A stretch of 63,401 nt of DNA, filler included, from Hausera hauseri (GCA_046269625.1; 11 parts of 11 records of this genome joined end to end with filler, not necessarily neighbours in it); one strand, 5' to 3'; numbered from the whole stretch's first letter, positions 4,247-60,529 are shown. Notes: generated from the letters alone by a model not told the origin. A program made the numbers and translations.

Positions 4247-6022
4247 ATAATTTCTTCATCAACCAGTGACATCACCTATAAGGTGACCACAAAACCGAAG
4301 TTCATTCTCTACTAGCCCAAATCAAGCCATCCACCTACTTCAATCGATACAAATTCTTCTCACAAAAATCTTATCAGTTCTTCACCACATTGTTCTGAAT
4401 ATTTTATAGACAATGAGAAGTCTAGCAAAACTTGGTTCCACTTCCATTAACTCTGGTTACAGTCCAACGGTATTACAGACTCGTTATCCAAAGTTCATAA
4501 TCTACTTTACCTTCCACCAAATTCCATAAAAGGCTCAATCCACAACTTACTGGACATTTTTCAACACTCTGACCCTTATACCCAATTGTTCGATGCTGTC
4601 TTAAAACTGACAGAGCCACCAATTGACTCTATAATTCAACGCTTCTTTAACGAAAACTCAATGGGGACAAAAACCCAGTGATTTCCTACGCACCTCGTTG
4701 GCTCACTTACGAACTCTAGGCGTCACCAAGGAACACAATCCGGATCTACTTCGACGATATTTCCTTAATGCATAAACCATTCAAATTAGGGCTTTACTTA
4801 CCGTTGTTGAAAATTCTACAGCCTTAGATAAACTGGCTGAATTGGTACATAAAGCACACAAAGTCTTACAAATCCAGTCACAATCCATAATATCAGCCGC
4901 TATTAGGACCGATGACAATCAACAACATACTTCTATTGAGCACCAATTGAATCAATTACGTGCCGAAAATGCGGCACTACAACACACAATCAACACCATC
5001 AAAAATAAACTAAACGAGATTTTATTGACTCGACGTGAGGGTTTCACACTTGACCTTACCGTTCAGTATTTCGTGGTCGTTCACCTTCTCCTGAACGATC
5101 ACTGATTTGCTATTACCACGGTAAGTTTGATAGTGACGCACAAAAATGCCACATATGATGCAAATTTTATGATCAAAGATACCATAAGGACAACGTCATT
5201 TGCATATATCATGCAAAATTCAGACATAATGCACGCAAATGCATTCCCGGTTGCATGATTAAAAACAAATCCCACCATGCATATGACGAACTCACAATTT
5301 TCGTTTCTAACAGTCGTTCAGGTTCCTCGTTTTCAAAAAATAACTTCGTCACCAGAGTTTTCGGCAAGCACTGGCGAAGACCACTTTTCACTTTCTAATA
5401 GCCGAAAAATTTCTTTCGCCGTGTTCACATTAAAAGCTTCCACCATTGCACCGAGCCCTCAACGCATAGATTTTCTCATCGATTCAGGCGTAGCGATTTC
5501 TTTACTACCGCTCACCTTCCCAACTCAACACACTTCATCCAAAATTACACCTTTATTTACAGCCTCCGGACAACCGCTCCATGTTTCCGGTACATGTAGG
5601 CTTTCTTTTGTCCTTCCGAAATTTACTCAAACATTCCACTGGATATTTACCGTCACAAATATCCAAACAGCCATTTTAGAATCCGATTTTCTTTCGCACT
5701 ATAACCTCCTTGTAGATTGCAAACAACGCTGATTAACAAGTGGTCGCAATAAGGAGCGATTCAATCACGACGATACAATTTCAGCTGTCGTACGGTTGAA
5801 TTCAGCTCAAATGCCGATATTAAAAAAATCGTTAAACAAACCTCTTTTACAACCATGGCATCTTATTTAATAAATCACTAAAGAACAACGTTATTGACGA
5901 TTGGGGTTTGCACAGAGATGAAAGTGATTCTGTTACCACTGCCAAATCCTTCGATAAAACTACAAACTACAATATCATCTTCAATACTACCATCCTGCAT
6001 CGAATACCACTTCATTCTCGAC
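4247..6022 (+). mobile_element. Ty3/Gypsy element copy 1: decayed gag, protease and PR-RT spacer; truncated by contig end
   Basis: YFIDNEKSSKTW..DPYTQLFDAVLK..LDKLAEL gag motifs; CYYH and CIYH zinc knuckles; protease FLIDSGVAISLLP..ILESDFLSHYNLLVD; homologous to 15704-18737 and 51949-53930. Confidence 0.9.
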
Positions 6023-6122
6023 NNNNNNNNNNNNNNNNNNNNNNNNNNNNNNNNNNNNNNNNNNNNTTAATTAATTAANNNNNNNNNNNNNNNNNNNNNN
6101 NNNNNNNNNNNNNNNNNNNNNN
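6023..6122. other. Artificial contig linker (44 N + TTAATTAATTAA + 44 N); first of ten
   Basis: Identical 100-nt linkers with stops in all six frames also at 12428-12527, 18738-18837, 23644-23743, 34790-34889, 39202-39301, 43705-43804, 48687-48786, 53931-54030, 58628-58727. Adjacency across linkers has no biological meaning. Confidence 0.99.
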
Positions 6123-7879
6123 TGATCGGAGGATTGTCCACACGGAAATTAAAGGGATTGCCAATTTTTAAATCATATTGTCACAATATTGTCAACTGCA
6201 CTATGGTAATTGCGATCACAGTAGCCAAAGTTCTTAGAAAAACATTCTTAGAAAAACCCACCGAATATCAAATAATTCGCATTGTCGAATTCAAACAGTT
6301 ACGAACACAAAATAAATATAATGGAGATTCGGTATGTTGCATATGTAATGAACCATGACTTACGACTGATGCAGAGTCAAACGGAATTGAGAAAACCCCC
6401 AATTGGATAATTACATAAAATGAAATTATATTTGATAGTCAAGACAAATGATGAGGTTATCATTTAAATTAGATTAATTCCCAGCATTATGCTATTAATT
6501 TCGTTAGGAGACTTCTAATATGATTTCACAATTTTATGAATTAGTATCTTACAACGGTATATCAAATAAATATTTTCTATGTTCAAATCACAAAGAAAAG
6601 TTACAAACGAAAATTTAAACCTGAGTTATCGCTTCATTATTACACACGGTCAACATGCAATCATATATCAACGATATTTCTACTACCATTACTCATATGT
6701 TAGCATTAAGTTAATTTCATTCCAATTTAAATGAACATTGATTTTTCATTATTGAACAGTAGAATAGTATAATTTTTATTATGGTATGATAATTGAGTCT
6801 ACTTTTTGTTGATTAATAATATCCCATTCATTTTTACTTTACTAATATTACACAAAATGAAATTCTATATTACGACTTGTCCAGTTTGTCGATATGGCTA
6901 GTTAGAAAGTACAGAAACGCCACCATAATAAATGCGAGATGAGAACAAAATGTTATTTTTAAACCCATAGCAACATTAAACATTTGAACTATTCAATGAA
7001 TTGGCGCTAACTTTATTGCCATTGATCGATATCCATTAATTTCCACGTATTGTTCAAGAAACAATTCCGAAATATATTAANNNNNNNNNNACGTTTCCAA
7101 CTCATAAAAATTTTCCGCGTAAAAAATGAAATACTGAGGAGTAGACACTGTAAAATTTATGTCTGTCAGCTGTGCATACTGTTCATTGTTCCGTTCACGG
7201 TCTTGGACACAATCATATTCGGGGTTGCCACTTTTATATATCAATGGTACTTTAAACGATGGATGATGTAGCAACAGTCTGAATTTATTTTGAGGAATGA
7301 TTTATACACTGCATAAATAAGGTTATAAATATAAATTATCGGCACTTCTGTGTTATATGTTACGTCTGCTTCTGTACTTCTTTATTAATTTAATACTAAT
7401 AGAGGCAGATCGACATTTTGTGCTTGAGTAAATGTAATCATTACTTTGAATTTTATGCAAACACAAGACTAATATACAGTGCTGCTAGAAAGTTTAAAGA
7501 TTAGTAAAAAAGAAGATTAATTTCAGATTAAAGATTTATGTTCATCATAATCACCGATTCAACACCTTCAATGGGCATTCAGTCAATAGTTAAATACACA
7601 CGAGATTATGTCACTAATTTTGCATGATCCAATTTTATCTCGCAAGGTCGAATTTCGTTTTCGTAATGTCTATTTTGAGAATTGATGTTACTAAGATAAT
7701 ATGTACAGGCACTTCTCTATTACAAGCATCCCCTGGTACTTCTTTACTATGCACTACATACAATATAAATGTTCTCCAATTAATTCGACAGAACCAGAGT
7801 TTGGAAAAAAAAATTTAATAGACAGAAGGGGGATAGTGAAGAAGTACACGAGGAATGTGCCAAAATTAAGTAGTTGTAC

Positions 7880-9077: not shown

Positions 9078-9841
9078 TGTTATATATTGGGGTGGCCCTT
9101 AACGATCTCCCGCTATATAACAGTAAGTTACTCTTTGGTTTATTAACCTTATGCAGATTCGGTTTGACGTTCTCGTCAAACGAATGTGCCGATGTGTAAC
9201 GATTTTAGCAGATGCGTGTACTGCGGGCAAATCCTGTGCTTGGTTAATTATAATTCTGGTAGCTATATAATTTAAAGTCTGATTTTACCCTTATTGTTGT
9301 CAAACCAGCTTTAAGAGCCGGTGGAAACTATAGTAGGAAGTTAAAACGATGTAAGCACAAATAAATAATATTACCACAATAACACAATCGTAACAGGATA
9401 AATCACTAGCGAATAAGTCAACAATGATTTGGAGCACAACTTGGCACTGCGATTCAACTTGGGTTTTTAAAACAATCGGTCGGAAACTGATCGACGCTAA
9501 AGTCGGAAATATCTTTAAAGAAAACTTTTACAGATGATCGGTTTCTAACGACGCTAAAGTCGTGAAAATAATGTTCTACTCTATTCTGATTTGGCTACGT
9601 TTATATAGTAGTTCATTGTGCAGGCATCCACAATTTCTATTAATTTCTTATGGCATGCTATGTAGGCGTCCGCAATTTTTCTCTATTTTTGATCGATTTT
9701 TCACAGCCCAATTCCAATGCATGCATCACTAATATAATTATAATCTACCGAATTTTATCTATTTACAGTAAACGATTGATATTTACAGCATCTCCTACGA
9801 TTTGACATTTACGACATAGCCTGCGGTTGACATTTACAACA
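9078..9841 (-). mobile_element. 3' LTR (~760 bp) of env/RING element copy A
   Basis: Minus strand starts TGTTGTA right after PPT AGGGAGGAGAAA (9853-9842) and ends TATAACA at 9078; shares CGCAGTACA(C/A)GCATC with the LTR at 48107-48686. The left boundary is inferred. Confidence 0.7.
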
Positions 9842-12116
9842 TTTCTCCTCCCTGAGCGACATCCTCGGATGTGCTTATTGCGTCAGAAAAGGTGGCGCCA
9901 TCATTTGAGCGTTGTAAGGCATTTAGCCTTTGTCGTAAATCGCTTTGGGAATTGATTCGCATACTAGTTTTGGGATTCTGCTCCAAGAAATAAGCAGTAG
10001 GTGTTTCATATCGACTACTCGATTATTTTCGCTACGTGAAAAGTATTTTAACTGGGATGCCTTTGCTTGGCATACTGGCCATGTCGTTTTTCCATTAATC
10101 AGCGTCCATTGTTCCAGACAATCTCGACAATGACGAAGTCTACAGTTCTTATTTGCTAAAATTACATAGCTTTGCCACAAATTGGCTTCACGTACGAGGC
10201 AATAATTTTGGGTATCCTTATCCAAATCACAGTCCGTAACCCATGTTATCTCTTGGAACAATAATCCTTTTGGATTCTTATAAAGGTATGCATGCAGTTG
10301 CTTTTGATCTGGGTCGACTGAACTTTTTCGTGGGTCCTCATTAACGGCTATTAGGGTCCACTCAATTACGGGTTGAGCATCTAGGTCTAAAATTCCCATT
10401 TTCTTGTACTGTTTCTTTATCTCTATTCTGGTCTGGTTATCAACTGGTACAGTTATTTTCTTGGTCCCTATTTTTGACTTGAATACTGGCGTCAAGTATT
10501 TTCCTAGTTTTGGGTCAATTCGTGCGTAGGCATTTTCGTTCAGTTCTAATATCGGTACTGTATGGATATAAAATATCGCTTCCTTGATATTTTCATGGCT
10601 TACATATTCTGCCATTATCAGGATGCTAGGTTGTTCTTCCATGTCCTTGTGGCCCTCTGTGATTATAATTTCTTTGTCTTGTCCCCTTTTTAGTACATTC
10701 ACTTCCGTAAGTCTCTTTGGTATATTTTCAGTAGGGTACTTTTTGATTTGTTCAGTTTGGGCTGATCCCTTTTCTTCTTTAGAAATCCGAATATTGATTT
10801 CTTTTTCTTTTCTGGAGACGAGTCTCTTAATTTGGGTTTTTTGGTTGATGTTCCTTGGTAGCTCTCCTCGATTTTTTTGTTTTTATGGGTATTTGGAATC
10901 CATATGTAATAGTACTTGATTTATGTTGGGCAGTATCTTGGTTTGAAACTGTAAATTGCATATTATTATCCTTGTTTGATACCGTAATTCGCATACTATT
11001 ATTTCTTTTGGATTCGACAATTCGCGTCGGCGAATACGGATGGAATTGTTTTCGGTGGCGCGAATTCAACTCCTTTAGATTCATACTGCTCTGCAGGTTA
11101 TTTTTAGGATGTAATGGTGACCATTCATGATCCCATTTGATTGTGGCGTAAATATCGCGCAAGTATTGGGTTCTTTTGGTAGCGGACAACTGTCGATTGA
11201 TTCTATAGTGGGTTCCGATCATGATTTCTATCATTCCCTTGAAATGCGTTTCCATGGTCATTGGAGCGGGTCGATTTACATTATCCATTTTCTCCTTAAT
11301 CTTGGGGTGAGCCCAAAACTCTTGTATCCCTGCTATATTTTTAGGGTTAATTTTCAGTTTGTCGATTTGTTCCTGGGTTTGGAATCCCGCGATTATACAA
11401 CTATACAAACAGTGGTTTAGTTCCATTTCTACAGCTTTTGTGTCTTTCCCATTTATCAAATCTTAATTTCTTATGCCTGTTATTTCCGCAAACGTTTCCT
11501 TTACTCTTTTGCGAGGAGAATTTCCATCATCCCCTTCTCCGTAGTTTCAGGCAATTATGCGAACGTTTCGCCCATCCTGTACCACTTTATATGACCATAA
11601 ATGTTGGTCTATTTGATATTCCGTCGGATACTGATAGTATATTAGGGGAGGCAGGGGTATGGTTAGGATTTCTTCACAGGTAATCTCTATTATAAATTTT
11701 ACGGGTAGGGATGCGATTCTTAATTCCACTTCTTCTCTCGTCAAGCTTTTTCCATGTATTGCCTTCCGTTGTTTGCGTCCCAGTTTTGTTCAGTCAGTCA
11801 ATAATAAACTTCCCCTTCTGCCAAGTGTATATACACGTCACTGTGCTGCCACAATTTAAATTACAATAAATATTTTAGACGATAGCTTCGTGCATCTTTA
11901 TTTTTCCTCATCGCATATAATCTCAACACTCGATTCTCTTCGACAATTCCCTTTAGATGGTTAGGAATTTCATCCACCTTATTGTATTCGATTGCTGTCT
12001 CGTTCTGTAGTTCCAGGTTGATTTGTCTAGATTGCTTTGGAATTAAGGGTGATGATGATTGCGTTCTCTTGTAAGAATCCGTCGATATTCATGTAAGAGT
12101 TGCTGCTGGTTGCCAT
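9834..12116 (-). pseudogene. Large accessory ORF with degenerate C-terminal RING finger (copy A; frameshifts and stops)
   Basis: Collinear with 45682-48114: EENRVLRLYAMR, LRIASLPVKFIIEIT, EAIFYIHTVP, EDPRKSSVDPDQK, C-terminus QGGEML*. Confidence 0.85.
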
Positions 12117-12227
12117 AATATTCACCAGTCTGAAATAAAACAAATCAAGGTTAATCCTAAGACAGATCTTTGTTTCATTACAAATCAATTTCCCTGTCTG
12201 ATGATAGAATAACCCGATCTGTAGTTG

Positions 12228-12427
12228 TCAGGTTATTTTATCATATAAATCACTGGTAAACCACCCTTATCCGTCCTTATTTTTGTGCTGTTTTCTACAA
12301 TTTTTGGCAGCTATATAAAATGACGCAATTAATATTAATAAGACGAACGTTGACACTCCAATAGTCGATATAATAGATGAAGTTGTTAATTCAATTGGTT
12401 TCTGTGTTGTCATATATGTAGTAATTG
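12228..12427 (-). pseudogene. C-terminus of env-like membrane protein (copy A)
   Basis: TM helix IISTIGVSTFVLLILIASFYIAA, then KNCRK..LYDKIT*; homologous to the end of 44285-45578. Confidence 0.8.
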
Positions 12428-15703: not shown

Positions 15704-18700
15704 ATGAATTTCCCACCAACCACTGATACTACAGATACAACCACCTCAAAGAAGCCAATACCCATTCTCTACTACACCAGACCAAGTCACCCACCTATTT
15801 TAACCGACGCAAACTCTTCCAACAAAAACCCAGTTCATACTTCTACATATTGCATTGACTACTTCATCGATAATGAAAAGTCCAGTAAAACGTGGCTTCA
15901 TTTCCACCAACTCTGGCTACAGTCTAATGGTATCACTGACTCCTTATCTAAAGCCCATAGTTTGCTTTATCTTCTCCCGAATTACATAAAAGCCTCAATA
16001 CATAACCTGCTAGAGATCTTTCAACACCCTGACCCTTATACCCAATTATTTGACGCTGTATTGAAACAGACCGAACTTTCCATTGACTCCATAATGCAGC
16101 GTTTCTTTAACAAAAATGCACTGGGTACACAAAAACCCAGTGACTTCTTACGGACCTCACTAGCACACTTGCGTACTTTTGGCATCACTAGGGAACATAA
16201 CCCGGATCTTCTACGCCATTATTTTATGAATGCCCTACCTATCCAAATCCGGGCCCTTCTTACCGTGGTGGAAGACTCCACACCACTTGATAAATTGGCC
16301 AAATTGACCGATAGGACATACGATGTCCTCCACATAAATTCACAACCCGTAGTTTCAGCAGAAGTTGCTGCTAACGACATACAAACAACTAACACGCCCA
16401 TAGAACAGCAGCTAAATTAGCTACGTGCTGAAAATATTGCATTGCAGGCAACTAGCACCAACATAAATAATAAATTAAATGAATAGTCTTTGTCCCGACG
16501 AGGGGGTTTTGCCGCTAACCGTACCCGTTATCCTTCAGGAAACCGCTCACATTGCCTGCGCGTTCGTAGATCTGCTACTACCACAGCAGATTTAACACTA
16601 ATGCCCAGAAGTGCTGCCTGGGGTGCCAATTTTATAACAGTAAATTTTCCTCGAGCACCGTTGTTTGCATTTACCATGCGAGATTCAAAAATCAAGCACG
16701 TAAATGTATCCCCGGCTGCACCTTCAAATCCAACACGAACGACGGACGTACTGTCTTCACTTCAAACAGTCGTCCCACTTCTCCTTTTCAAAAAACCTAA
16801 CTTCGCCGCCAGAAGTCACGGCAACCTCTGGCGAAGACACTCGTTCACACTCTAAACGCCGACATGTCCTTTCGCAGTCTTCACGCTAAAAGCCGCAATT
16901 ACTGCCACTACAACTAAATCTCTTGGCTTCCTTATTGATACATGGGCAGCCATTTCTCTATTACCGCAAACCTTTCCTACACAGAACTCTCCTTTCAAAA
17001 TCAAACCTTTATATACTGCTTCAGGCCAGCCGTTGCACATCTCGGGAACGGCTACACTGTCTTTCACACTACCAAATTTCTTCACATCTTTCCGTTGGAC
17101 GTTCACAGTCGCTAACGTCCAGTCGGCAATCCTTGGTTCTTAATTCCTCTCACACTACAATTTACTGGTGGACTGCAACCAGCGATGTCTCAGGAGCGGC
17201 ACCACTGGCAACATTTCTGTACATGTATATAGCGTTTCGACTACCGCGCAGTCGACCGTGAGGTAGAAGTCAATCCTAAAATGTCTGCGAATAAGTCGAT
17301 TTTTTAGAACAGTAATTCGAATTTTCACCAAAGCTAACTCATTCGACGAAAATAACTCAGCCAACACCATTTTCAACTCAACCATCTTGCACCAAATTCC
17401 ACTTGACTGCATATCACGTAGCAACTCAGACATTGCATCCGCTACCACTCAAACCGTTCCACCACTTTCACCGAATCCCTCACAGTTACCTAAAATTTTA
17501 CAGCAATTCATCAACAAAGCATGTCCACGCGTACCTAAAAAAGACCGTTCCTTTACTCATGCCAACAGCACTCTACACCATATAGTCATACAGTATCAAC
17601 GTCCAATACGCCAAAAGGTACGGCCTTTGTCACCTCGCCGTAGACAGGCCGTAGAAGCCGACTTTCTTGAGCTCGAAAGCTCCGGCATAGTACGCCGTTC
17701 CAAATCACCTTGGTCATCACTGTTACACGTTGTACAAAAAAGGATGGCACTTTTCGACCATGCGGTCACTACCGACATCTGAATAACTTGACCATCATGG
17801 ATGCATATCCTTTACCACTCATCAAGGATATCTTGCATCGCCTTAATCCAACCATCATTTATTTGACTATTGATTTAGCTGAAACCTACCACCAAATACC
17901 GGTAGCACCTGAAGACATTGAAAAAACCTCAGTAACTACTCCGTTTGGCCTATACAAATATTTATTTATAGCATTTGGTTTTTGGAATGCAGCACAAACT
18001 TTTTAGCGACACATAGATTCCATTCTTTCCGATTTCTCGTTTGCACACCCTTATATCGACGACATTTTAGTCGTTTCGTCTTCGGCCAAACAACATGAAG
18101 AACACCTTCGAGCAATATTTCAACGTCTCAACCATCATAATCTACAAATCAATTTTGACAAATTTTAATTTTTCAAAAGCGCATTAACTTTTTAGGAAAC
18201 GTTATCACACTAGACGGTCATTCTCCCAATCAGACCGAGTTGAAGCTCTTAAAAACATCCAGTTGCCACGCACGACCACCGAAATGCGCAGCTTCCTTGG
18301 CACACTTTACTTTGTACATAAATATGTGCCATATTGCTCGGAATTAACAGCGCCATTCGCATACCTAAGCGGCGGCAAAAAAATATCAACCAAATCAATG
18401 GACACCTGAATTGGTTGACAAATTCGACAAGCTCCGCGAAGGCATCAAAACTGTAGATATTCTTGCTTTTCCCAAGCCTGATGCAGAACTTATCCTCACT
18501 ACTGACGCGTCAATCACTGCAGTAGGCGCTGTACTCCACCATATCTACAAGGGAGAAAACCAACCATTGGAATTTTTCTCTCGCAAACTAACCGCACCTG
18601 AAACCAGGTATTTCACGTTCGATTAAGAACTATTGGCAATCGTTCTCGCCCTCAAACATTTCTCACACTTACTCGTCGCTCGTCATTTCACTCTACAAAC

Positions 18701-18837: not shown

Positions 18838-21800
18838 ACGTGATGTCACGTGATTGGTCACATGATGTTACGTGATTGATCTCGCGATGTCACGTCATTA
18901 AACTCATGATATCACGTGATGTCTCGTGATTGGTCCAGTAAAGTCGCGTGATTAAACCCGCGATAACACGTGATGTCACGAGATTGGTCACATGATGTCA
19001 CGCGATTGATCTCGCGACATCACATGATTATACTCATACCAAGTGATGTCACGTGATTGGTCAGATGATGTCACGTGATTGATCTCGCGAAGTCACGTAG
19101 TTAAACTCATGATATGAAGTGATGTCACGTGATTGTTCTGATGATGTCACGTGATTAATCTCGCGATTTCATGTGATTTCACTCATGATATCAAGTGATG
19201 TCACGTGATTGGTCACATGATGTCACGTGATTGATCTCGTGATGTCACGTGATTAAACTCATGTTATCACGTAATGTAACGTGATTAGTCACACTATGTC
19301 ACGTAATTGATCTCGCGATGTCACTTGACTAACTCATGATATCACTTGATATCAAGGGATTGGTCCAGTAATGTTACGTGATTGAACCCGCGATATCACG
19401 TGATGTCACTTGATTAGTCACATGATGTCACGTGATTGATCTCGCAATGTCAAGTGATTAAACTCATGAGATCACGTGGTATCACGTGATTGGTGTCATG
19501 ATGTCACGTGATTGATCTCGCGATGTCACGTGATTAAACTCATGAGATCACGTGATATCACGTGATAGGTGTCATGATGTCACGTGATTGATCTCGCGAA
19601 GTCACGTGATTAAACCCATGATATCATGTGATGTCACATGATTGGTCACATGACGTCGCGTGATTGATCTGGTGATGTCACGTAATTAATCTCATGTTAT
19701 CACGTGATGTAACGTGATTGCTCTCGTGAAGTCACGTGAATAAACACATGATATCACGTGATGTCGCGAGATTGGTCACATGAGGTCACGTGATTGATCT
19801 CGCGATGTCACGTGATTAAACTCATGATATGAAGTGATGTCACGTGATTGGTCACATGATGTCACGTGATTGATCTCACGATGTCATGTGATTAAACTCC
19901 TGAGATCACGTGATATCACGTGATTGGTCACATGATGTCACGTGATTGATCTCGCGAAGTCACGTGATTAAACTCATGATATCAAGTGATGTCACGTGAT
20001 TGGTCACATGACGTTACGTGATTCATCTCGCGATGTTATGTGATTAAACTCATGAGATCACGTGATATCACGTGATTGGTCACATCATGTCACGTGATTG
20101 ATCTCGCGAAATCACGTGATTAAAATCATGATATCAAGTAATGTCACGTGATTGGTCACATGATGTCACGTGATTGATCTCATGATGTCACGTGATTAAA
20201 CTCATGTTATCACATGATGTAATGTGATTGCTCTCGTGAAGTCACGTGAATAAACACATGATATCACGCGATGTCACGTGATTGGTCACATGATGACACG
20301 TGATTGATCTCGTGATGTCACGTGATTAATCTCATGTTATCGCGTAATGTAACGTGATTGCTCTCGTGAAGTCACGTAAATAAACACATGATATCACGTG
20401 ATGTCACGTGATTGGTCACATGATGTTACGTGATTGATCTCGCGATGTCACGTCATTAAACTCATGATATCACGTGATGTCTCGTGATTGGTCCAGTAAA
20501 GTCGCGTGATTAAACCCGCGATAACACGTGATGTCACGAGATTGGTCACATGATGTCACGCGATTGATCTCGCGACATCACATGATTATACTCATACCAA
20601 GTGATGTCACGTGATTGGTCAGATGATGTCACGTGATTGATCTCGCGAAGTCACGTAGTTAAACTCATGATATGAAGTGATGTCACGTGATTGTTCTGAT
20701 GATGTCACGTGATTAATCTCGCGATTTCATGTGATTTCACTCATGATATCAAGTGATGTCACGTGATTGGTCACATGATGTCACGTGATTGATCTCGCGA
20801 TTTCATGTGATTTCACTCATGAGATCACGTGATGTCACGTGATTGGTCACATGATATTACGTGATTGATCTCGCGATGTCATGTGATTAAACTCATGAGA
20901 TCACGTGATATTACGTGATTGGTCACATGATGTCACGTGATTGATCTTTCGAAGTCACGAGATTAAAATCATGATATGAAGTGATGTCACGTGATTGGTC
21001 TGATGATGTCACGTGATTGATCTCGCGATTTCATGTGATTTCACTCATGAGATCACGTGATGTCACTTGATTGGTCACATGATGTCACGTGATTGTACTC
21101 GCGAAGTTACGTGATTAAACTCATGATATCACGTGATATCACGTGATTGGTCACATGATGTTACGTGATTGATCTTGCGATGTCACGTGACTATCTCATG
21201 ACATCACGTGACGTCGCGTGAATAAACTCATGATATCATGTGATGTCACATGATTGGTCAAATGATGTCACGTGATTGATCTCGTGATGTCACGTGATTA
21301 ATCTCATGTTATCACGTGATATAACGTGATTGCTGTCGTGAAGTCACGTGATTAAACTCATGATATCACGTGATGTCTCGTGATTGGTCCTGTAATGTCA
21401 CGTGATTGAACCCGCAATATCACGTGATGTCACGAGATTGGTTACATGATATCACTCGATTGATCTTGCAATGTCAATAATTAAACTCATATCAAGTGAT
21501 GTCACGTGATTGGTCACATGATGTTACGTGATTGATCTCGCGAAGTCACATGATTAAACTCATGATATGAAGTGATGTCACGTGATTTGTCACATGATGT
21601 CACGTGATTGATCTCGCGATTTCATGTGATTGAACTCATGAGATCACGTAATGTAAAGTGATTAGTCACACTATGTCACGTAATTGATCTCGCGATGTCA
21701 CTTGACTAACTCATGATATCACGTGATGTCACGTGATTAGTCACATGATGTCACATGTTTGATATCGCGATGTTACGTGATCAAACTCATAATATCACGT

Positions 21801-23643
21801 GAAGTCACGTGATTGGTGTCATGATGTCACGTGATTTATCTCGCGATGTCAAGTGACTAACTCATGATATCACGTGACGTCACGTGATTGGTCACATGAT
21901 GTCACGTGATTGATCTCGCGATGTCACGTTACTAAACTCATGATATCACATGACGTCACGTGATTGGACCCGTAAAGTCACGTGATTGATCTCGTGATAT
22001 CACTTTATTAATCTCATGTTATCACGGGATGTAACGTGATTGCTCTCGTGAAGTCACGTGAATAAACCCATGATATCATGTGATGTCACATGATTGGTCA
22101 CATGATGTCACGTGATTGATCTGGTGATGTCACGTGATTAATCTCATGTTATCACGTGATGTAACGTGATTGCTCTCGTGAAGTCACGTGAATAAACACA
22201 TGATATCACGTGATGTCGCGAGATTGGTCACATGAGGTCACGTGATTGATCTCGCGATGTCACGTGATTAAACTCATGATATGAAGTGATGTCACGTGAT
22301 TGGTCACATGATGTCACGTGATTGATCTCACGATGTCATGTGATTAAACTCCTGAGATCACGTGATATCACGTGATTGGTCACATGATGTCACGTGATTG
22401 ATCTCGCGAAGTCACGTGATTAAACTCATGATATCAAGTGATGTCACGTGATTGGTCACATGATGTCACGTGATTGATCTCGCGATGTCATGTGATTTAA
22501 CTCATGAGATCACGTGATGTCACGTGATTGGTCACATTATGTTACGTTAATGATCTCGCTATTTCACGTGATTAAACTCATGAGATCACGTAATATCACG
22601 TAATTGGTGTCATGATGTCACGTGATTGTTCTCGCGAAGTCACGTGATTAAACTCATGATATCAAGTGATGTCACGTGATTAATCACATGATGTCACGTG
22701 ATTGATATCCCGATGTTACGTGATCGAACTCATGATATCACGTGATGTCACATGATTGGACACATGATGTCACGTGATTTATATCGCGCTGTCAAGTGAC
22801 TACCTCATGATATCACGTGCCGTCGCTTTATTGGTCACATTATGTCACGTGATTGATTTTGCGATGTCACGTTACTGAACTCATGATATCACATGACGTC
22901 ACGTAATTGGACCCGTAAAGTCACGTGATTGATCTCGTGATGTCACGTGATTAATCTCATGTTATCACGTGATATAACGTGATTGCTTTCGTGAAGTCAC
23001 ATAAATAAACTCATGATATCACGTGATGTCACGTGATTAGTCACATGATGTTACGTGATTGATCTCGCGATGTCACGTGATTAAATTAATGATATCACGT
23101 GATGTCTCGTGATTGGTTTAGTAATGTCACGTGATTGAACCGGCGATATCACGTGATGTCACGAGATTAGTCACATGATGTCACGCGATTGATCTAGCGA
23201 TGTCACGTGATTAAACTCCTGATATCAATTGATGTCACGTGATTGGTCACATGATGTCACGTGATTAATCTCGCGAAGTCACGTGATTAAACTCATGATA
23301 TGAAGTGATGTCACGTGATTGGTCGCATGATGTCACGAGATTGATCTCGCGATTTTATGTGATTTCACTCATGAGATCACCTGATGTCACGTAATTGGTC
23401 ACATGATGTTACGTGATTGATATCGCGATGTCACGTGATTAAACTCATGATATCACGTGATATCACGTGATTAGTCACATGATGTCACGTGATTGATATC
23501 CCGATGTTATGTGATCAAACTCATGATATCACGTGATGTCACGTGATTGGACACATGATGTCACCCGATTTATCTCGCGATGTCAAGTGACTACCTCATG
23601 ATATCACGTGACGTCGCGTTATTGGTCACATGATGTCACGTGA
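18838..23643. repeat. Satellite array, ~76-bp unit (22+22+22+10) built on TCACGTGA palindromes
   Basis: Consensus TGATGTCACGTGATTGGTCACA TGATGTCACGTGATTGATCTCG CGATGTCACGTGATTAAACTCA TGATATCACG; 54-bp variants; fills the whole contig. Confidence 0.98.
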
Positions 23644-43804: not shown

Positions 43805-44233
43805 TTCACTCCATTTTTTATGATGTACGGAAGAGAAGCTGCGCTTCCTACAGATCTAGGACTGATTCCATATACAACACAGACGGAGGATTTAGAACAA
43901 AATTTTGTCGAAATATTACAATCAAGACTGCACAAGTGTTGGGAAATAGCCAAGGAATTATCTAAAGTATACCAAGAACAATTCAAGAAGCAATACAATA
44001 AGAAAGCTAAACCTCACGATTTAGAACCCGGAAACTGGGTTTATATACACTATCCAGTAGCAAAGAAAGGCACATCTCTGACGCTTACCAGAACAGGCAG
44101 AGGACCTTATTAAGTTACTAAGATTACGCCTACTACAGTTTATATAAATAAAAACGGTACGGAAGAGGTTATATCAATTCAGAGGGTAGTTAAAACGGAA
44201 ATAAGACCAGTCAAACGCTACAATTTGCGTTCA
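43805..44233 (+). pseudogene. Ty3/Gypsy integrase C-terminus (GPY/F module) of env/RING element copy B
   Basis: FTPFFMMYGREAALP..KKQYNKKAKPHDLEPGNWVYI..GPY*VTKITPTTVYI..RYNLRS. Confidence 0.9.
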
Positions 44234-44284
44234 GGCAAAATTATTAGAGAAACAAAAACGTTGTCAATAGTAACTAGACCAATA

Positions 44285-45578
44285 TCGTATGTGCAAATAG
44301 TCCTGGCCTTATCGTTAATCGCTTCGTATCTACCGAAGGTGAAATCGATAAATCAAGCTGAAAAATTGCAATATGCGGCAAGGGACATTTAAAACTTACA
44401 GTCACCCAAAGTACACGATATGGATTGGAGAAAACCATGTTCGTGGTTCGAAGCAAGTGAACCCATTTAGAGTTATGTGAAATTTCAAATAATATTTGTA
44501 ACTAAATCCATGATGAGAACATGTGATTTTCCACACGGACATCATAAAAGATGCTGTGATTTGGACTTTTGACAAGCCTACGGATACAGATTTCAAATGT
44601 TCTATTCTAATCAGTTTGGAGCTCAAGCTTATATAATTACAGAACTCGTAATAAGAATGCCGCAGCGAAAGGATGCGAATCAAGTCAAGACGGACGAAAT
44701 AATCCGAAGCACTGACCCGTTTAAAAGACTCTTAGAATATAACATTATTGGGATTTCTAAGGACTTTAAAAACCAATGTATTCGAATCAAAACTAAGGTA
44801 GAACTGCATGGAGACAGACAAATTTCTGTCCGATGTATACCATTAAATGCTTCCATTCCTAACCCGGAGTATTGTTATTTGGCCAGACGCCGATCTACTA
44901 TGTGCTGTGTAATACAATTAGGACAAAAATATCAGCTGCAATTCGACTTGTACAATACGTACTCCGGAGAACGAAGTACGGGATATCGTCCGAGAATCGG
45001 AATATGGGAGCTTTCCTTCCCAACCACTACGAGAAGACCATCTACAGTTCCAAGTACAACTCTCACTACTACGATCGTCACTTCGGACGAAATGCCAGAA
45101 AGCATACCGGTTAAGATTTTAGCAAAAAGTGGTAGAATTCTATTTTACGTTGAAGAGACGTTAAATCGAGACGTCAAAATTGAATGTCGCACCCTGCACA
45201 TCAACCAAGTTGTGATCCTGAAAAAAAAATAATCAGGAAGCTGAATGCAGGTCCTTACGGCCGAAACATGACTATATAATCAGAATTATCTCAAAGGATA
45301 AGAACCCTAAAACTTATACAGTGCGGACTGTAGACAACCAAATCTAAGTGATGCGGTAAAGAGATCTTAGTACGCAGAATGCTTTTACCACAAAAGATTC
45401 TATTGAAACAAACAATTTACTGACGATAGTTAAATTAAGTTTATCAATTTTCGTTCTTGTCATATTAACGGCGATGATTTTTCTAGTTTCCAAAAATTGT
45501 AATAAGCGCTGTAAAAATCGGAAGGGAGATAAATGGGTAAAAAGGCACCAAAACGGACTTTATGATAGCATAACCTGA
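44285..45578 (+). pseudogene. Env-like type-I membrane protein (signal peptide, Cys-containing ectodomain, Thr-rich stalk, TM, YxxI tail), decayed
   Basis: YVQIVLALSLIASYLPKVKS in frame with integrase; PTTTRRPSTVPSTTLTTT; TM LLTIVKLSLSIFVLVILTAMIFLVS; KNC..LYDSIT* with TGA 45576-45578. Confidence 0.75.
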
Positions 45579-45681
45579 CAACTACAGATCGGGTTATCCT
45601 ATCATCAGACAGAGAAAATGTTTTGTTTCAAAACGGTGATGTCTTAGGACTGACCTTTATTTTTATTTCAGCAGAGTAAGT

Positions 45682-48114
45682 ATGGCCGAAAAGGCAAAGA
45701 ATCCAGCCGTCAGTTCCAACTACGACATCGATGATTTCTTACAGCAGCACGTTACTGTTCTCAAACCATTATCCAAGAGTTTATATCGACAAATTGGAGA
45801 AAATCTGTAAACCCAGACCTATCTAGAGTTCAATCAAGAGAGTAAAATACCAAATGGACTAAAATGGGGTTTAGAAGAGAATCGACTGGTCCGATTATAT
45901 GCCATGAGAAATCCCAAGGATGCACGGGCATACCTTTTAAGAGATCGGATCCCATATGAGCCGACACATCAGAAATTGTATATACATGTCGCTGATGGAG
46001 AAATTCAATACAGGATCGTAAGACAATCCTGGATTACTCAGAAAGGACAGCAATGAAAGTTTAGTACCTACGAACTATGTTGTTATAGCCTCATGAATTA
46101 TGCTCTAGAATTCAGGATCGCGGACCTTCCGACCAAAATAATGATCGAGATGACGTGGCGAATAGAGGTAATGAATCCACTACCACCATTATTATATATA
46201 CAGAAGCCAACGGAAGATGAAATAGAGCAAAATGGGGAATCTTATAGATTAGTCCCAGGTGGCCGAAATACCCGGATATTGGCAGTAAACTATGGAGAAA
46301 AGGATGACGGATGGTATGTTCCGATTGAGGTCTCTTTCAGAAATACTAATGGAGAAGAGATCATAAATAAAATAATCGCGCCTCGAGCTAGAATAAAGTA
46401 TACTTTTCCCGATGTCACAGGAATTACGAAAGTACAGCTCGAAAAGGGAAAGGATTCCTTGGAGATCCAAGAAGATATAAGCCATTGCTTCTATGTATAT
46501 ATTGTTACCGGATTCCGAGTGCACGAAGCGCTGAAGCGACTAGGAATTAGGCAAGAATACATAGCCGGAATTCCAGAATTGAGCCGAAACCCAGCAGTTG
46601 TGAGCCAAGTAAAAAATACCTTGATGCAGAAAAGAGGTTGCCTGCTTCTGTCAGCATCGCGCGAATCGCAATTTAAGATGATGCTAGAAGCCATAAATGG
46701 CGAACGATCCAAATTCCCTAAGTTGATGACAGCAAGCCAACGGCCCAAATTTATAAAAGATATCTATGACTCCTTACGATGGGATCTCGAATGGAAACCC
46801 AGAAATTACATGCAGAATGCGATATTCAACAATAATCCCAAGACCCTAATACAAAAATTCCGAAAAGGATTTAGTGAATACCCGAGTTATCGGCAAATAG
46901 TACCCCAAGAACATAACTGATTTCGAGTAACAGTTCAAAATAATCCAGTAGAAGTCCGTAACAGCCAACAGAAACCAACAACCAGTCAAGCTCAAAAAGA
47001 AACAATAGTAAAATCAAATAACCCTGACAACTCCAGAAGGCAAAAGACGAAAACTTCCTTCCTGTAATATATTAGTAAGAAGAGTAAACCTAGTAAAAAT
47101 CAAACAGACAAAAATAAACCAGCAGCCGACAGCCCAATTCAGAAGGAACCAACAAACGATGAAAAGAAAATATCGAGCCAACGAGGAACAGAGGAAAACA
47201 ACGAAAATCAGTCAAGAACTACCAAAATTGGATCGTTTAGGACAGAAATTAACGTTCTTCGGAAAAACTGGGAGGAAGATACTCCAATTATCGTTACAAA
47301 ATTCGGTCAAGTGAAGGAATATAAAAGAATCCTCGTCATGACTAAATATCATAGCAAAGGTAAAATCAGAGAAGCTATATTTTATGTATCCACTGTCCCT
47401 AGAAGAATAGTAAGTGGAAACGGATATACGAAAAAAGATACTACCATTGGCAGACACTTAGCCCCAATATTTCAATTAAAGAATGGCAATAACAGATTAA
47501 CAATTCCCGTGGATACCCAAGTTAGAATGCAAATAAAAAGACAATATAAGAAGACTGGAGTACCCGATTTGGATAAATAAGAAATAGTCGAATGGACGTT
47601 GGTTACGGTATCTGAAGATCCAAAGAAAAGTTCAGTAGACCCCAATCAAAAGAGACTATACGGATACTTATACCAAGACAGAAAAGTACTGGTATTCTAG
47701 AAAATAGAAGTGGATGAAAACCTTGTGGATATCGACGCAGCTGAAAAGGAAGAATGTCCCGTTTGCGATGCGGATCTCTATCAAGGATTCGTAGTATTGG
47801 ACAACAAGGATTGCAGTCACAAATATTGCACGTACTGCTTAAAAATGTGTACTGTGAAAAATGGGAAAATGATCTGTACAGTAAGTAGAGCCGAAGCTAC
47901 AAGGCTGAGACACTACTCAAATGGAGAAAACAAGAAAATAGTAGAGATACTACCCGAAAGGGCTACTACATTCTACCATTTTAACTCGAAATCGCAATCG
48001 AACGAGGCGCATTCGGAAGCGGACTTAAGCGGACGAATGGACCGATTACGCGGCACCTCTACTGATGCAACGGGCACATCCGAGAGTGCCGTTCAGGGAG
48101 AAGAAATGTTGTGA
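45682..48114 (+). pseudogene. ~810-codon accessory ORF with C-terminal C3HC4-type RING finger (copy B; one frame, several stops)
   Basis: ATG 45682 and track ORFs 46093, 47311, 47710 share a frame; CPVC..CSHKYCTYC..CTVS; the stop overlaps the LTR start. Confidence 0.85.
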
Positions 48115-48686
48115 AATGATCAACTTTGCAAAATCGTACTAAACGAAACTGTTATCGAAACGGAAACCAAAACAAATTGATTATAATTGAATGTAGTGCA
48201 CAATCCGATATAAAGTTCGAGGTATTAACTAGTGTATATAAGCCGGAAATTATTAAAATTGTGTAAATAGTCAACCAATTTAATTGAAATAAAAAAAATT
48301 GCAAATCGAAGAAAAATATTTTAAATATACGAGTCCAGAACTGTATATAAGTGGATGGATTTATGTACAGTCGTCAGTAGTTAGCCAGTTGTTAATCAAT
48401 CAATTTGAATAAACAGAATCTACATTTGCATCGAGAAGAGTTCACGACTAATAGAAAGACATTGAATTGCATTGTGAATCTTCGATATTGTTATTGGTAT
48501 TTTTCCTTGTTGTTTAATAAATTTTCGTTGCAAACTCTCATATAGTTTTCCGTCGCTCCTTACGAGGGACTTTCACCACACTAAGTTTCAAAATTGATTT
48601 AAACTTCATAAATAGGTCGAGATCCGATAACTACGCAATGCACCACACGCAGTACAAGCATCATAAACTAGTGCATACATTCTAAC
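48095..48686 (+). mobile_element. PPT and 3' LTR of env/RING element copy B (truncated by contig end)
   Basis: AGGGAGAAGAAA (48095-48106) then TGTTGTGA at 48107; same arrangement as copy A. Confidence 0.8.
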
Positions 48687-51948: not shown

Positions 51949-53930
51949 ATGCAATCCTATTCCACCATTGGCACTACGGACGATCCTGCTAAACCTAAAT
52001 CGATTATTTACCTCAAAAAACAATGTAACCTTAAACCATCAATAACTCCTCAAAACTCTTGTAAGACTTCTCTGTATGAGCAAACGGATATCAACCCATC
52101 TCAGTGTACCGAATATTTTATTGACAACCAAAATTCTAGCAAAACTTGATTGCAGTTTCACCAACTATGGCTTGAATCTTGCGACATTACTGATTTTTTG
52201 GCTAAGGCTAACAATCTTCTATTCCTCCTCTCAACCAACATCAAAACTCGTATCCACAATCTTATGGATATTTTTCAGCAGGCCGACCCTTATACTCAGC
52301 TTTATATACTCTATAATTCATCGCTTCTTTAATCATAATGCAATGGGAACACAAAAGCCTTCTGAATTTCTGCGTATGTCGTTGACTCACCTTCAAACGC
52401 TAGGTGTAACCAAGCAGCACAATTCCGACCTTCTGCGACGATATTTCTTAAACGCGTTGCCTACACAAATTAGGGCACTTTTTACCGTTGTTGAGGAATC
52501 TACGGTGTTGGATAAATTAACCGAATTAGCTCATAAAGCACATGAAGTGCTACAATTGAATTCCCAACCAATTGTATCAGCCGCGGTCACAACAAGCGAC
52601 AACCAACTCAATACATCAATAGAGCAACGGTTGAGCCAACTATGCGTTTAAAACTTGGCACGACAACAGACAATAAATAACATTAATAATAGGTTAAACG
52701 ATCTTTCATTACCACGACGAAGTGTCCTTTTTTAACCTTACCCGTTCTGTTTCCAAAAATCGGTCACCATCGCCTACACGATCTTATGTATGCTATTATC
52801 ATAACACATTTAATAATAAAGCTAATAAATGCTGTTTAGGGTGTAGATATTACACTCCACATTTACATTCAGACAAAATTGTTTGCATCTATCGTGCGAA
52901 ATTTGGATTTCACGCTCAGTGTCTTTCAGGGTGCAACTATAAGAACAACGCTAACCATACCACCGGCAGAAGTTCTATTTCCCCTTGTAATAGTCGGCCG
53001 ATCTCACCAATTCAAAAAAACTAATTTCGCCGCCAGTACTCACGGCAGAGTCTGGCAAAGGCAACTTCCCTAACACTAACTGCCGATACACTTGCAGTTT
53101 TTACACTAAAGGCTTCGATAACCACACCAACAACTCAATCTGTAGACTTTCTTATTGACACGGGTGCTGCGGTTTCTTTGCTGTTACTCTCCTTCTCTGT
53201 ACAAAATTCACCATTCAAAACTAAATTATTATTTACGGCTTCCGGACTACCGCTCGACATTTTAGGTACATCTAAATTATCGTTCACCTTACCAAAATTT
53301 CACTCCCAGTTTCATTAGCCGTTTACCGTCGATAACGTCCGCACAGTTATACTAGGTTCCGATTTCTTATCCCACTTTAATCTTTTAGTTGATTGCAAAC
53401 AACAATGTCTGAAAAGTAACACTACTGGATAACGTACCAAGCAAATAAACAGTATATCCGCTATAGCGTGAACGATTTTCCGACAGAAATCTATACTCAA
53501 ACATCCTATAACTAATCTAAACTTCTTCAACAAGCATTTTTCATTTCGTAAATTTTTAATGATAATATTGATATCTCGTGGAGATTTGGCTTTGGCAACT
53601 ACGGTTGTGTTAGTTCGGTACCTTCCCTAGACAAAATTACCTCTTCGAACACTATTTTCAATACTACTATCCTACATTAAATTCCACTTGATTTCACTAG
53701 CTCAAAATTCACTCGTCACTGCATATATTAACTCAATACTCCTCCCAACACCCAATGTCACAATTGCCTGCAAGCCTACGGCAATACATGCGCACTTCAT
53801 GTCCCCGTTTAATCCAAAAGGGCCGATCTTTCACTTCTACGGGTAGCACTATTCATCACATCATAACGCAACATGAACGACCTATTCGTCAAAAGGTGCG
53901 TCCATTGTCACATCGTCGTAGGAAAACTGA
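51949..53930 (+). mobile_element. Ty3/Gypsy element copy 3: decayed gag, protease, start of RT
   Basis: MGTQKPSEFLR..FLNALP..LDKLTEL; CYYH..KCCLGC and CIYR..CLSGC; FLIDTGAAVSLL; HHIITQHERPIRQKVRPLS. Confidence 0.92.
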
Positions 53931-54030
53931 NNNNNNNNNNNNNNNNNNNNNNNNNNNNNNNNNNNNNNNNNNNNTTAATTAATTAANNNNNNNNNNNNNN
54001 NNNNNNNNNNNNNNNNNNNNNNNNNNNNNN

Positions 54031-57000
54031 ACGTTGAGGTACTTGATGACGTTGGAATTGTTGTAGGTATGGTTGATTCAATACTCGAAGTCACAGTGCT
54101 TGTTGTCGTTGGAATTGTTGTCGATGTGGTCGGTACCATAGTAGATGTTGAGGTACTTGTTGACTTTGGAATTTCTGTAGATGTGCTTGGTACTATACTA
54201 GACGTTGAGGTACTTGATGACGTTGGAATTGTTGTAGGTATGGTTGATTCAATACTCGAAGTCACAGTGCTTGTTGTCATTGGAATTGCTGTAGTTGTGG
54301 TCGGTGCCATACTAGACGTTGAAGTACTTGTTGTCACTGGAATTTCTGTAGATGTGGTTGGGACTATACTAGACGTTGAGGTACTTGATGTCGTTGGAAT
54401 TGTTTTAGATATGGTTGATTCAATACTCGAAGTCACAGTGCTTGTTGTCGTTGAAATTGCTGTCGACGTGGTCGGTACCATAGGAGATGTGGAAGTACTT
54501 GTTGTGGTTGGAATTTCTGTAGAAGTGGTTGGTACTATACTAGATTTTGACGTACTTGCTGTCGTTGGAACTGTTGTAGATATGGTTGATTCAATACTCG
54601 ACTTCACAGTACTTGCTGTCGTTGGAATTTTTGTCGATGTGGTCGGTACCATATTAAATGTTGAGGTACTTGTCGTCTTTGCAATAGTTGTCGATGTCAC
54701 AGTGCTTGTTGCCTTTGGAATTTTTGTCGATGTCAAAGTGCTTGTTGTCGTTGGAATTGTTGTCGATCTGGTCGGTACCATACTAGACGTTGAGGTACTT
54801 CTTGTCGTTGGAATTTCTGTCGATTTGGTTGGTACTATACTGGGCGTTGAGGTACTTGATTTCGTTGGAATTGGTGTAGATATGGTTGATTGAATACTCG
54901 AAGTCACAGTGCTTGTTGTCGTTGAAATTGTTGTATTTATGGTAGACACAATACTCGACTGCACAGTCCTTGTTGTCGTTGGAATTGTTGTCGGTGTGGT
55001 CGGTACCATACTAGACGTTGAGGTACTTCTTGTCTTTGGAATTTCTGTTGATCTGGTTGGTACTATACTAGGCGTTGAGGTACTTGATTTCGTTGGAATT
55101 GTTGTAGATATGGTTGATTCAATACTCGAATTCACAGTGCTTGTTGTCGTTGGAATTTCTGTCGATGTCACAGTGCTTGTTACTGTTGGAATTGCTGTTG
55201 ATGTCGTCGGTACAATAGTATATGTTGGGGTACTTGTTGTCGTTGGAATTACTGTCGAGGACTCAGTATTTGTTGACGTTGGAATTGCTGTCGATGTGGT
55301 CGGTACTATAGTAGATGTTGATGCACTTGTTGTAGTTGAAATTTCTGTCGATGTGATTGGTACTATTCTAGACGTTGAGGTACTTGTCGTCATTGGAATA
55401 GTTGTCGATATCACAGTGCTTGTTGACGTTGGAATTGCTGTCGATGTGGTCGGTACCATAGTGTATATTGAGGTACTTGTCGTCATTGGAATAGTTGTCG
55501 ATGTCACAATGCTTGTTATCGTTGGAATTACTGTCGATGTCATAGTGCTTGTTGACGCTGGAATTGCTGTCGATGTGGTCGGTACCATAGTATATGTTGA
55601 GGTACTTGTTGTCTTTCGAATTTCTGTCGACGTCACAGTGCTTTTTATCGTTGGAATTTCTGTCGATGTCATAGTACTTCTTGTCGTTGGAATTACTGTC
55701 GATGTCATAGTGCTTGTTGTCGCTGGAATTGCTGTCGATGTGGTCGGTACCATAGTGTATGTTGAGGTACTTGCCGTCATTGGAATAGTTGTCGATGTCA
55801 CAGTGCTTGTTGTCGTTGGAATTGTTGTCGATATGGTCGGTACCATACTAAATTTTGAGGTACTTGTTGTCTTTGGAATTTCTGTCGATATGGTTGGTAC
55901 TGTACTAGACGTTGATGTACTTCTCGTCTTTGGAATAGTTGCCGATGTCATCGGTACCATACTCAATGTCATAATGCTAGTTTTCGTTGGAATTGCTCTC
56001 GATATAACTGGTAACATACGAGACGTGACGGCACCTGTTGTCGTTGGAATTATTGTATATATGTTTGATTCAATACTATATGTCACTCTGTTTGTTGACC
56101 TTGGAATTGTTGTCGATGTGGTCGCTACCACACTCGATGTCGAAGTACTTGTTGTCGTTGGATTTGTTGTCTTTATGGATGCTATCATACTAGATTTTCC
56201 GGTACTTGTATTCTTCAGAATTGTTGTCGATGTCGTTGGTACCATATTGGACGATGTCGTGCTTGTTCTCGTTGGAATTGTTATCGATGTGGTTGGAGCC
56301 AAATTATTCGTTGGGATAATACGTTGTGGAAATGTAGTCATTGTGATTGGCGGTATGATTGGAGAACTCGTTTTTATTGATGTAGAAATGACATTTGTTG
56401 CTGTGTTTGTTAATGTTTTTGAATAAGTCATTTTAGTTGATGAAATGCTTCTAGACAATTCGGTTATATTGATTTTTTTTGATACATTAGTTGAATTTGT
56501 AGTCCTGTTTTGTAGACGTATGGACATTGAAATTGGTGACATAGTGGAAAATATTGAAGTCGAAGGATGTGATTCGTTTGGATAAATTGTAGCAGTTGTG
56601 CGCATAGAAGAGTTTGTAGATTCAGTTGACCCTGCTGTTGCTGTCGTTGTAGGAAGTATATTGGTCGTCATGTTTGCTTGCGTACTTTTATTCCTGTTAT
56701 CATCTGTGCTGTTAGACTTACTTGATGAAAGTATAGTATTGGTACTTTCAAATTTCGTTCTTACCGTTTGTAGTGTTGAAGTTGAAGAAATAGTTGGTCT
56801 ACTGTTTGAAACCATTGTTTGAATAATTTTATCCGGTATGTTTGAAAACATAATGGAAGACATTAAGGAAAACGAATTTGTCTTTTTTGAATCTGTAATC
56901 TTTTCATGTTTCGCCGAACTTTGTGATGTCACAGATGATGTCTTTGTAGTCGTAGTTGGAGGAACCTTAAATACCGTACTGGACATGATACTTGGCACAG

Positions 57001-59460: not shown

Positions 59461-59739
59461 TCGATTAAAAAGATTGTACAAAATGAAATAAAACATGTAG
59501 ATAAATTCATGTCAGAAAAAATTGTTACGAATTTAATGAGTTCGATTGTTAAATTGCCGATTTTACTCTGTTCATTAAAGAGTTATGATCTATATATGAA
59601 TTTCAAAGATATTAACACACATGTCGGTAATGTGTTATTATTTACCACCATTTCAAAAATTTATTTTTATAACGTATTAATTTTCCTCACAGTTGCAGTA
59701 ATGTATTTTGGTAATGTATTATTATTTATCACAGTTGTA

Positions 59740-60470: not shown

Positions 60471-60529
60471 GATAAGAGTTCGCCGCATTTTACAGCAACT
60501 ATATCCAGGAAAGAAGATGAATCAATGAT

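Follow-up and report, generated by a model that had tools for sequence, protein, structure and literature searches.

A gag-env-pol layout with an HSV/gB-type ENV has been published for flatworm, nematode and bryozoan errantiviruses (Chary and Hayashi, PMC13524379). In retroelements, stop-codon readthrough is known mainly for setting gag/pol or pol/env ratios; among viruses, the CAR-YYA hexamer is the tobamovirus readthrough signal, and alphavirus UGA sites carry a stem-loop 8-9 nt downstream (PMC3159437). Here we describe an element from Hausera hauseri (GCA_046269625.1), found in a window of 63,401 nucleotides that consists of short contigs joined by N linkers. The window holds two decayed copies on separate contigs: copy A, the decayed 3' end of a Ty3/gypsy element at the right end of one contig (9078-12427, minus strand), and copy B (43805-48686, plus strand). 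In this family a post-integrase membrane protein ends at a stop codon of readthrough type, in frame with a downstream accessory open reading frame (ORF), and a splice acceptor with its own ATG lies between the two. Judging from the sequences, we lean towards dual expression of the accessory protein, as a free form from spliced RNA and a membrane-anchored form made by readthrough.

Copies A (12427 to 9000) and B are collinear at the protein level by tblastx across the transmembrane (TM)-tail, the ORF and its C-terminus, and all four peptide blocks named in the initial annotation occur in both, whereas at the DNA level blastn aligns just two stretches, the junction (82% over 116 nt) and the start of the polypurine tract (PPT) and long terminal repeat (LTR) (81% over 75 nt). 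The copy B LTR is not alignable to that of copy A. The initial annotation was therefore right to see a second, diverged copy with the same order on another contig and strand. The 43-mer that it singled out (12236-12194, minus; 45570-45612, plus) is indeed conserved, with one mismatch between the copies, but the readthrough-type stop motif, the splice acceptor and the pseudo-enzyme domains had been overlooked. Nor is the long ORF of copy A one open frame; compared with an open natural copy it has frame changes near 12030, 11757, 10830 and 10000, plus stops. The frame is open over 777-814 codons in three natural copies (L021, L022, L148).

Part of the accessory ORF has at least 126 matches in its own genome (G000). 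The 26-nt junction pattern has 106 exact matches there and 0 for a reversed control, so the junction repeats are not due to chance. Between copies A and B, the proportions of nonsynonymous and synonymous differences (pN and pS) in the ORF are 0.37 and 0.72, giving a ratio of nonsynonymous to synonymous rates (dN/dS) of about 0.21 that is near saturation. Natural open pieces at dS 0.3-0.8 have a median dN/dS of 0.16 overall, and medians by domain of 0.13 for the N-terminal double-stranded beta-helix (DSBH; 6 pairs), 0.17 for the exonuclease (5), 0.10 for the middle domain (9) and 0.08 for the RING (5). Domains that are catalytically dead are thus maintained by selection, and the earlier view of the ORF as a selected family feature rather than a one-off capture is supported by the genome matches and the low ratios. 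The ORF also lies on the same contigs as gag-pol, and one contig (C377701) spans gag to LTR. The QG.EML* region, with a pS of 0.11, owes its conservation largely to overlap with the PPT and LTR start.

To characterize the stop context without circularity, we took loci identified independently of the junction and placed the anchor on the upstream peptide alone. This gave 33 copies, three of which supplied the anchors; 2 that were too short had been dropped. The stop is UGA in 30, UAA in 2 and UGG in 1, and CAR-YYA is present in 29. The +4 position alternates between C and T as the motif permits (55 versus 15 of 77, in a set partly found via the motif). The stop of the membrane protein is in frame with the accessory ORF in 80 of 90 junctions, an analysis from which 3 junctions lacking the downstream motif were dropped, and in 31/37 of a set found independently of the junction. 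Inherited lineages have spacers of 99, 102 or 105 nt. On a 71-row tree there are three inherited length changes, each of 3 nt, and the off-frame lengths all fall on single tips. Stops in the spacer frame occur in 10/80 copies versus 11/80 in the next 35 coding codons, and the other two spacer frames are interrupted in 53/80 and 80/80 copies. Synonymous divergence between lineages is about halved in the spacer (0.32-0.48 versus 0.80-0.86 in the ORF). The frame upstream of the ORF start is also open in two outside proteins (P0002, P0003).

The same long stem, starting 12 nt past the stop, forms in four open-frame copies of different lineages (z -2.9 to -4.2). The RNA alignment has 63 rows, 14/77 junctions (mostly off-frame or deleted copies) having been omitted. 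In the long stem, 89% of cells pair compared to 40-54% in slid controls, and two-sided changes occupy 90 cells versus 30 in shuffles (0/500), in 11/25 pairs. A rival hairpin, in which the stop is buried, has 97% of its cells paired and displays no covariation. Rfam returned neither a selenocysteine insertion sequence (SECIS) nor any other family at gathering score in three copies (L148, L021, L101), the sole match being a below-threshold miRNA-like one on the hairpin.

The 3' arm of the long stem carries a branch-like site, and is followed by a pyrimidine tract, YAG, four bases, GTRAGT and an ATG. YAG is found in 85/90 and GTRAGT in 76/90 copies, both being favored by the motif search, and the first ATG past the acceptor is in frame in 82/90. 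GTRAGT stands exactly 4 nt past the acceptor AG in all lineages (12125-12120, minus; 45676-45681, plus). In some leaders a donor-like AACG/GTAAG lies ~230 nt past the primer-binding site (PBS), but most copies depart from the full donor consensus. No spliced retrocopies were seen among 42 exact exon-start matches of one subfamily, 30 of which were fetched: 39 keep the AG, and the three exceptions, when inspected, were not joined to the element leader. There was also no GT..AG joint among the matches listed in two contig runs, which is silent on expression. One of these datasets, the organism B contig run, consists of near-identical pieces at low depth and was not counted as a second species. 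As a separate observation, one locus (L264, C131695 of G000) has a 33-nt in-frame deletion that loses the branch site and pyrimidine tract and keeps the stop, hexamer and frame.

Distant relatives on 17 metagenome contigs, from two datasets and including some near-duplicates, encode the same DSBH-exonuclease with intact catalytic residues and without a RING. In 16/17, a YAG lies no more than 12 nt from the ORF start, and none of the 17 has a UGA-CAR-YYA cassette. Because the relatives are acceptor-started and lack the cassette, the acceptor is probably the ancestral expression route, with the readthrough cassette probably a later addition in the stop-linked RING family. Neighboring ORFs in the relatives include TRAF, RING, FN3-like TM and gag. 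Four loci (L165-L168) display a row of separate accessory ORFs, namely a RING, a coiled coil, an IAP-type RING, a TRAF with MATH and an intact DSBH-exonuclease, which mostly begin directly after (T)nAG, as if splicing resolved a polycistron.

The accessory protein itself combines four domains. Residues ~10-158 are modelled by AF2 as a DSBH, with a predicted local distance difference test (pLDDT) of ~70-95 for residues 11-160. Fold comparison gave Ofd2 (Z 9.9, root-mean-square deviation 4.6, 139 residues aligned) and ALKBH6 (Z 9.3) against a background best of 7-8 for the tool, with cupins ranking closely below the AlkB-family structures. One His is invariant (26/26 rows) and no HxD/E was found by eye, without structure-based residue mapping. 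Residues ~190-365 have weak matches to SDN1 (E 1e-3) and ISG20L2 (3e-3) from the family profile alone, and also match database proteins that carry an RNase_T domain (E 1e-6 to 4e-4). In the family rows, the Asp and Glu of ExoI are each kept in 0/30, and the His and Asp of ExoIII each in 0/26, while the relatives keep the catalytic residues of ExoI in 17/17 and of ExoIII in 16/17 (one is cut off). By sequence, the domain is a DEDDh fold stripped of its catalytic residues. A profile comparison (A3 versus A4) and a PDB search with A3 share rows with the active relatives and are not independent evidence. The middle domain has a model pLDDT mostly below 60, and no fold was recognized in this low-confidence model of the longer protein. 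The C-terminal RING-HC finger, a predicted E3 ligase domain, scores above the Pfam cut-off as zf-RING_2/zf-C3HC4 in three copies (L021, L029, L148), and each of the 8 ligands of the C3HC4 set is kept in 22-24 of 23-24 rows. Compared to pre-selected candidate proteins, the whole protein had no match at E<=0.001 (7,991 scored); the full HMMER scan gave 34. For the N-terminal half, the only ESM Atlas clusters under 0.9 were those of RNase_T and arenavirus NP, and the C-terminal part drew generic RINGs; both are leads only. A viral fold library gave only AlkB/cupin-like and RING matches.

Upstream of the stop, the post-integrase protein starts with a signal-like hydrophobic stretch; three beta domains and a T-rich stalk then lead to a TM helix and a basic tail of ~30 amino acids (aa) (model mean pLDDT 76). 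The top Foldseek ranks are triple FN3 fragments (E 2e-10) with low TM-scores, which probably stem from differing domain angles in the model. The initial annotation had called this part env. However, the fusogen sits between gag and protease, and Pfam scans of the post-integrase protein found no fusion-glycoprotein family. The model suggests a protein of adhesion or receptor type rather than a fusogen.

Several points weigh against dual expression. Since an ATG is retained in each lineage, the accessory protein could be made without readthrough. Frame-keeping is backed by just three inherited indels, and shuffling leaves the spacer open in 7-13% of cases. One 2-nt spacer deletion is common to copy B and L153 and also occurs in L269, from another subfamily; this recurrence suggests a hot spot, although inheritance may be involved. 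The long stem was derived from the fold of one copy, and related sequences may beat shuffles without structure; RNAalifold (63 rows) favored the hairpin over the stop, and of the long stem it retained the tip alone. Dual expression does not account for GTRAGT, which may mark a microexon, bind U1 or act as a donor. Finally, in the retrotransposon Tca2 a stop with a readthrough-like structure is accompanied by a junction promoter (PMC2194720).

The alternative that survives best is that cis- or trans-spliced RNA is the sole source of the protein, with the hairpins regulating splicing, export or packaging and the hexamer and open frame arising as by-products. We consider this unlikely. In its favor, all lineages retain the branch-like site and pyrimidine tract as well as the YAG and an in-frame ATG, the stem covers the branch site, some leaders have the donor-like sequence, and both the intact-nuclease relatives and their TRAF/RING neighbors start right after (T)nAG without UGA-CAR-YYA. 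It leaves unexplained why an unpaired loop is fixed as CAA-YTA, why a stop is kept in frame, why the three inherited indels in the T-rich tract are all of 3 nt when private indels are mostly off-frame, and why the spacer has a stop rate equal to that of coding sequence; moreover, the leader donor falls short of full consensus in most copies. The converse, that the protein is solely membrane-anchored and the acceptor-like tract just encodes hydrophobic residues, strikes us as improbable. All of the readthrough features (stop context, stem and frame) agree with it, as do the exon-start matches, 0/42 of which (30/42 fetched) were seen joined to the leader, but the lack of spliced retrocopies is weak evidence, each lineage has an in-frame ATG at a position of its own just past the AG, and in the relatives the homologous gene starts at an acceptor. 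Another route, either an internal junction promoter as in Tca2 (PMC2194720) or selenocysteine at the UGA, for which SEPN1 provides a stem-loop near a recoded UGA (PMC3159437), is very improbable, as there is no promoter evidence (none was sought), no SECIS at gathering score in the three copies scanned, and two copies have UAA in the same context.

Dual expression could operate as follows. A long ORF running gag, ubiquitin-like domain, gB, protease (PR), reverse transcriptase (RT), RNase H (RH), integrase (IN), signal, three FN3 domains, TM and tail would be cut by signal peptidase and the protease, which would leave the FN3 part outward and the tail cytosolic. Spliced RNA would yield the soluble accessory protein. 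On genomic RNA, a few per cent of ribosomes would pass the UGA and produce a minor cytoplasmic extension of the FN3 membrane protein, presumably a receptor-shaped protein with an RNA-binding module and an E3 ligase inside. One strand is common to the stop hairpin and the long stem, so that in this model the two could form a two-state switch: the long stem would hide the branch site and stimulate readthrough, and the short hairpin would free the branch site for splicing. The full version of this scheme, a receptor-like E3 ligase (FN3 outside; dead AlkB-like and exonuclease folds plus RING inside) formed only by UGA readthrough and balanced against the spliced soluble form by the hairpin switch, we regard as rather doubtful. 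As to function, we tentatively regard counter-defence as the likeliest role: the dead nuclease and the DSBH would bind RNA or ribonucleoprotein, and the RING would ubiquitinate a host factor at the particle-forming membrane. This proposal draws on the inactive DEDD derivatives Maelstrom and EXD1, which retain RNA binding (PMC5408684), and on the ubiquitin-related cargo of Burro, discussed below.

Table 1. Coordinates of the features of copies A and B within the window.
Feature	Position	Strand	Basis or remark
3' LTR, copy A, TG...CA	9078..9841	-	764 bp; related LTRs then PBS
PPT, overlapping last accessory-ORF codons	9842..9853	-	sequence; same site in other copies
Accessory ORF, copy A (ATG 12116, stop 9834)	9834..12116	-	four frame changes and several stops
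RING-HC finger (approximate)	10070..10207	-	three ligands decayed in copy A
Conserved middle domain, no fold assigned (approximate)	10240..10624	-	EAIFY..TVP and EDP.KSSVDP blocks; dN/dS 0.10
DEDDh-type exonuclease domain without catalytic residues (approximate)	11110..11570	-	profile and alignment matches
DSBH (AlkB/cupin-like) domain (approximate)	11665..12089	-	AF2 model, fold comparison
Branch-like YTRAC, pyrimidine tract, CAG acceptor (AG 12131-12130), 5'-splice-site-like hexamer	12120..12154	-	sequence
Predicted long stem-loop, first base 12 nt past stop	12148..12215	-	RNA folding, covariation
UGA stop (12230-12228) and CAR-YYA hexamer, accessory-ORF frame	12222..12230	-	sequence, peptide-anchored copies
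Post-integrase FN3 membrane protein: stalk end, TM helix (~12374-12306), basic cytoplasmic tail	12231..12427	-	contig end at 12427
Copy B integrase C-terminal part	43805..44250	+	homologous to IN in L027, L148
Copy B signal peptide, three FN3-like domains, T-rich stalk, TM, tail	44290..45575	+	decayed; start approximate
Copy B UGA-CAACTA, stem-loop, acceptor, ATG (45682)	45576..45684	+	spacer 2 nt short
Copy B accessory ORF with stops	45682..48114	+	40% identical to L021 copy
Copy B PPT and LTR (LTR from 48107; contig end cuts LTR)	48095..48686	+	sequence

The whole element can be followed on contig C377701, which carries one whole decayed unit of 15,375 bp from PBS to next PBS in the order gag, coiled region, ubiquitin-like domain, glycoprotein, PR, RT, RH, IN, membrane protein, junction, accessory ORF, PPT and LTR. 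The order PR-RT-RH-IN on this single contig is accompanied by Pfam matches on L148 and L149. The glycoprotein, of class III, occupies 5166-7298 of C377701, between gag and protease. It is the element's env, because it matches Monjiviricetes_fusion (PF24664; chuvirus/gB-type) in 5/5 pieces (E 2e-44 to 2e-16). Among other natural copies, a single open frame of 1,709 codons runs from the env tail to the TM and one of 1,344 codons from gag to the ubiquitin-like domain, and the stretch from that domain to the env signal is in one frame with a single stop; from these frames we infer that gag through TM-tail is encoded as one polyprotein. At one locus (L146:1-4032, minus strand), the gag-side ORF carries a CCHC knuckle, a coiled-coil-like stretch of ~700 aa and a ubiquitin-like domain, then the env signal. 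A variant host code with UGA as Trp was rejected, as open frames of 1,192-1,709 codons contain no TGA. The best database matches of the RT are 33-46% identical, and few are named. Related copies cease matching at the same base at the LTR ends, and several run on into the PBS; of 52 LTR ends inspected, 3 are solo-LTR candidates with a 4-bp target-site duplication. For the primer tRNA, one pattern was tried and gave no match. Head-to-tail elements sharing one LTR, with the PPT before and the PBS after it, are common (C377701 and C2236 of G000; L116, L160, L234, L235, L249).

Other parts of the window hold further features. Another, smaller gypsy-type gag-protease region is present in three copies that are 64-68% identical (4303-5731, 15763-17208 and 52102-53428). 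A tandem array with a ~76-bp period at 18838-23643 aligns also to its own reverse strand, and 53975-58159 (minus strand) is an open frame of 1,394 codons that is Thr/Ser-rich and mucin-like. At 58762-62463 there is a row of intron-free, stop-broken host-gene pieces, which include SMC3 (E 6e-62 to human SMC3) and, by eye, an ERI1-like exonuclease piece.

The element class and the exonuclease cargo are already known. The GAG-ENV-POL errantiviruses are alike in PR-RT-RH-IN, in a class III glycoprotein between gag and pol and in size, and by eye the gB domain here resembles their planarian ENV rows (PMC13524379). The main text of that paper has no mention of readthrough, fibronectin, exonuclease, RING, accessory or splic-, and in the part examined its post-POL regions are unannotated; the published flatworm elements may carry FN3-TM and readthrough parts that were not annotated. 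The planarian giant gypsy Burro/GYPSM1 shares a huge polyprotein with gag, a coiled coil, a ubiquitin-like domain and an in-frame env before PR (PMC6431247). From these resemblances, the host is probably a flatworm. Burro also has ubiquitin-related accessory domains, and the relatives L166 and L168 here carry TRAF-MATH and RING ORFs; Burro measures 30 kb against 15 kb here, and the portion of its description consulted does not mention a post-IN FN3-TM protein or a stop-linked pseudonuclease-RING (PMC6431247). Unlike in Burro, our Pfam scans found no BIR, BCL2, ankyrin or dUTPase. ORF3 of the bdelloid elements Juno and Vesta is likewise a DnaQ-fold exonuclease that LTR elements carry as an accessory gene at the 3' end, but it is DEDDy with intact residues and no TM link (PMC5408684), whereas the exonuclease here is ISG20/REX4-like, DEDDh, without catalytic residues, and fused to a DSBH and a RING. 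A post-integrase FN3-TM protein with a readthrough link to a pseudo-enzyme RING was not found in the literature searched, nor did searches on retrotransposons with readthrough and envelope, CARYYA, DEDDh exonuclease, or FN3 and RING return anything relevant; most subscription journals and Repbase lay outside their coverage.

The junction shares its hexamer and stem position with type I (UAG-CAR-YYA, tobamovirus) and type II (UGA with a 3' stem-loop, alphavirus) readthrough signals, as well as suppressed synonymous change and an in-frame downstream ORF (PMC3159437). If dual expression is correct, readthrough would decide the tethering of an accessory ubiquitin ligase to a membrane protein, akin to viral counter-defence management. 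The cassette, at ~120 nt and with natural covarying variants, is directly testable, and the relatives provide a matched comparison between an intact, acceptor-started DSBH-exonuclease and the dead, RING-fused, stop-linked version here. The retroelement SIRE1 reportedly has an in-frame stop between pol and env (as cited in PMC2194720). Unlike type I and type II signals and SIRE1, the element described here has both signal types together, at a stop that ends the cytoplasmic tail of a membrane protein; the downstream ORF is an accessory E3 rather than pol or env, and a splice acceptor is nested in the cassette.
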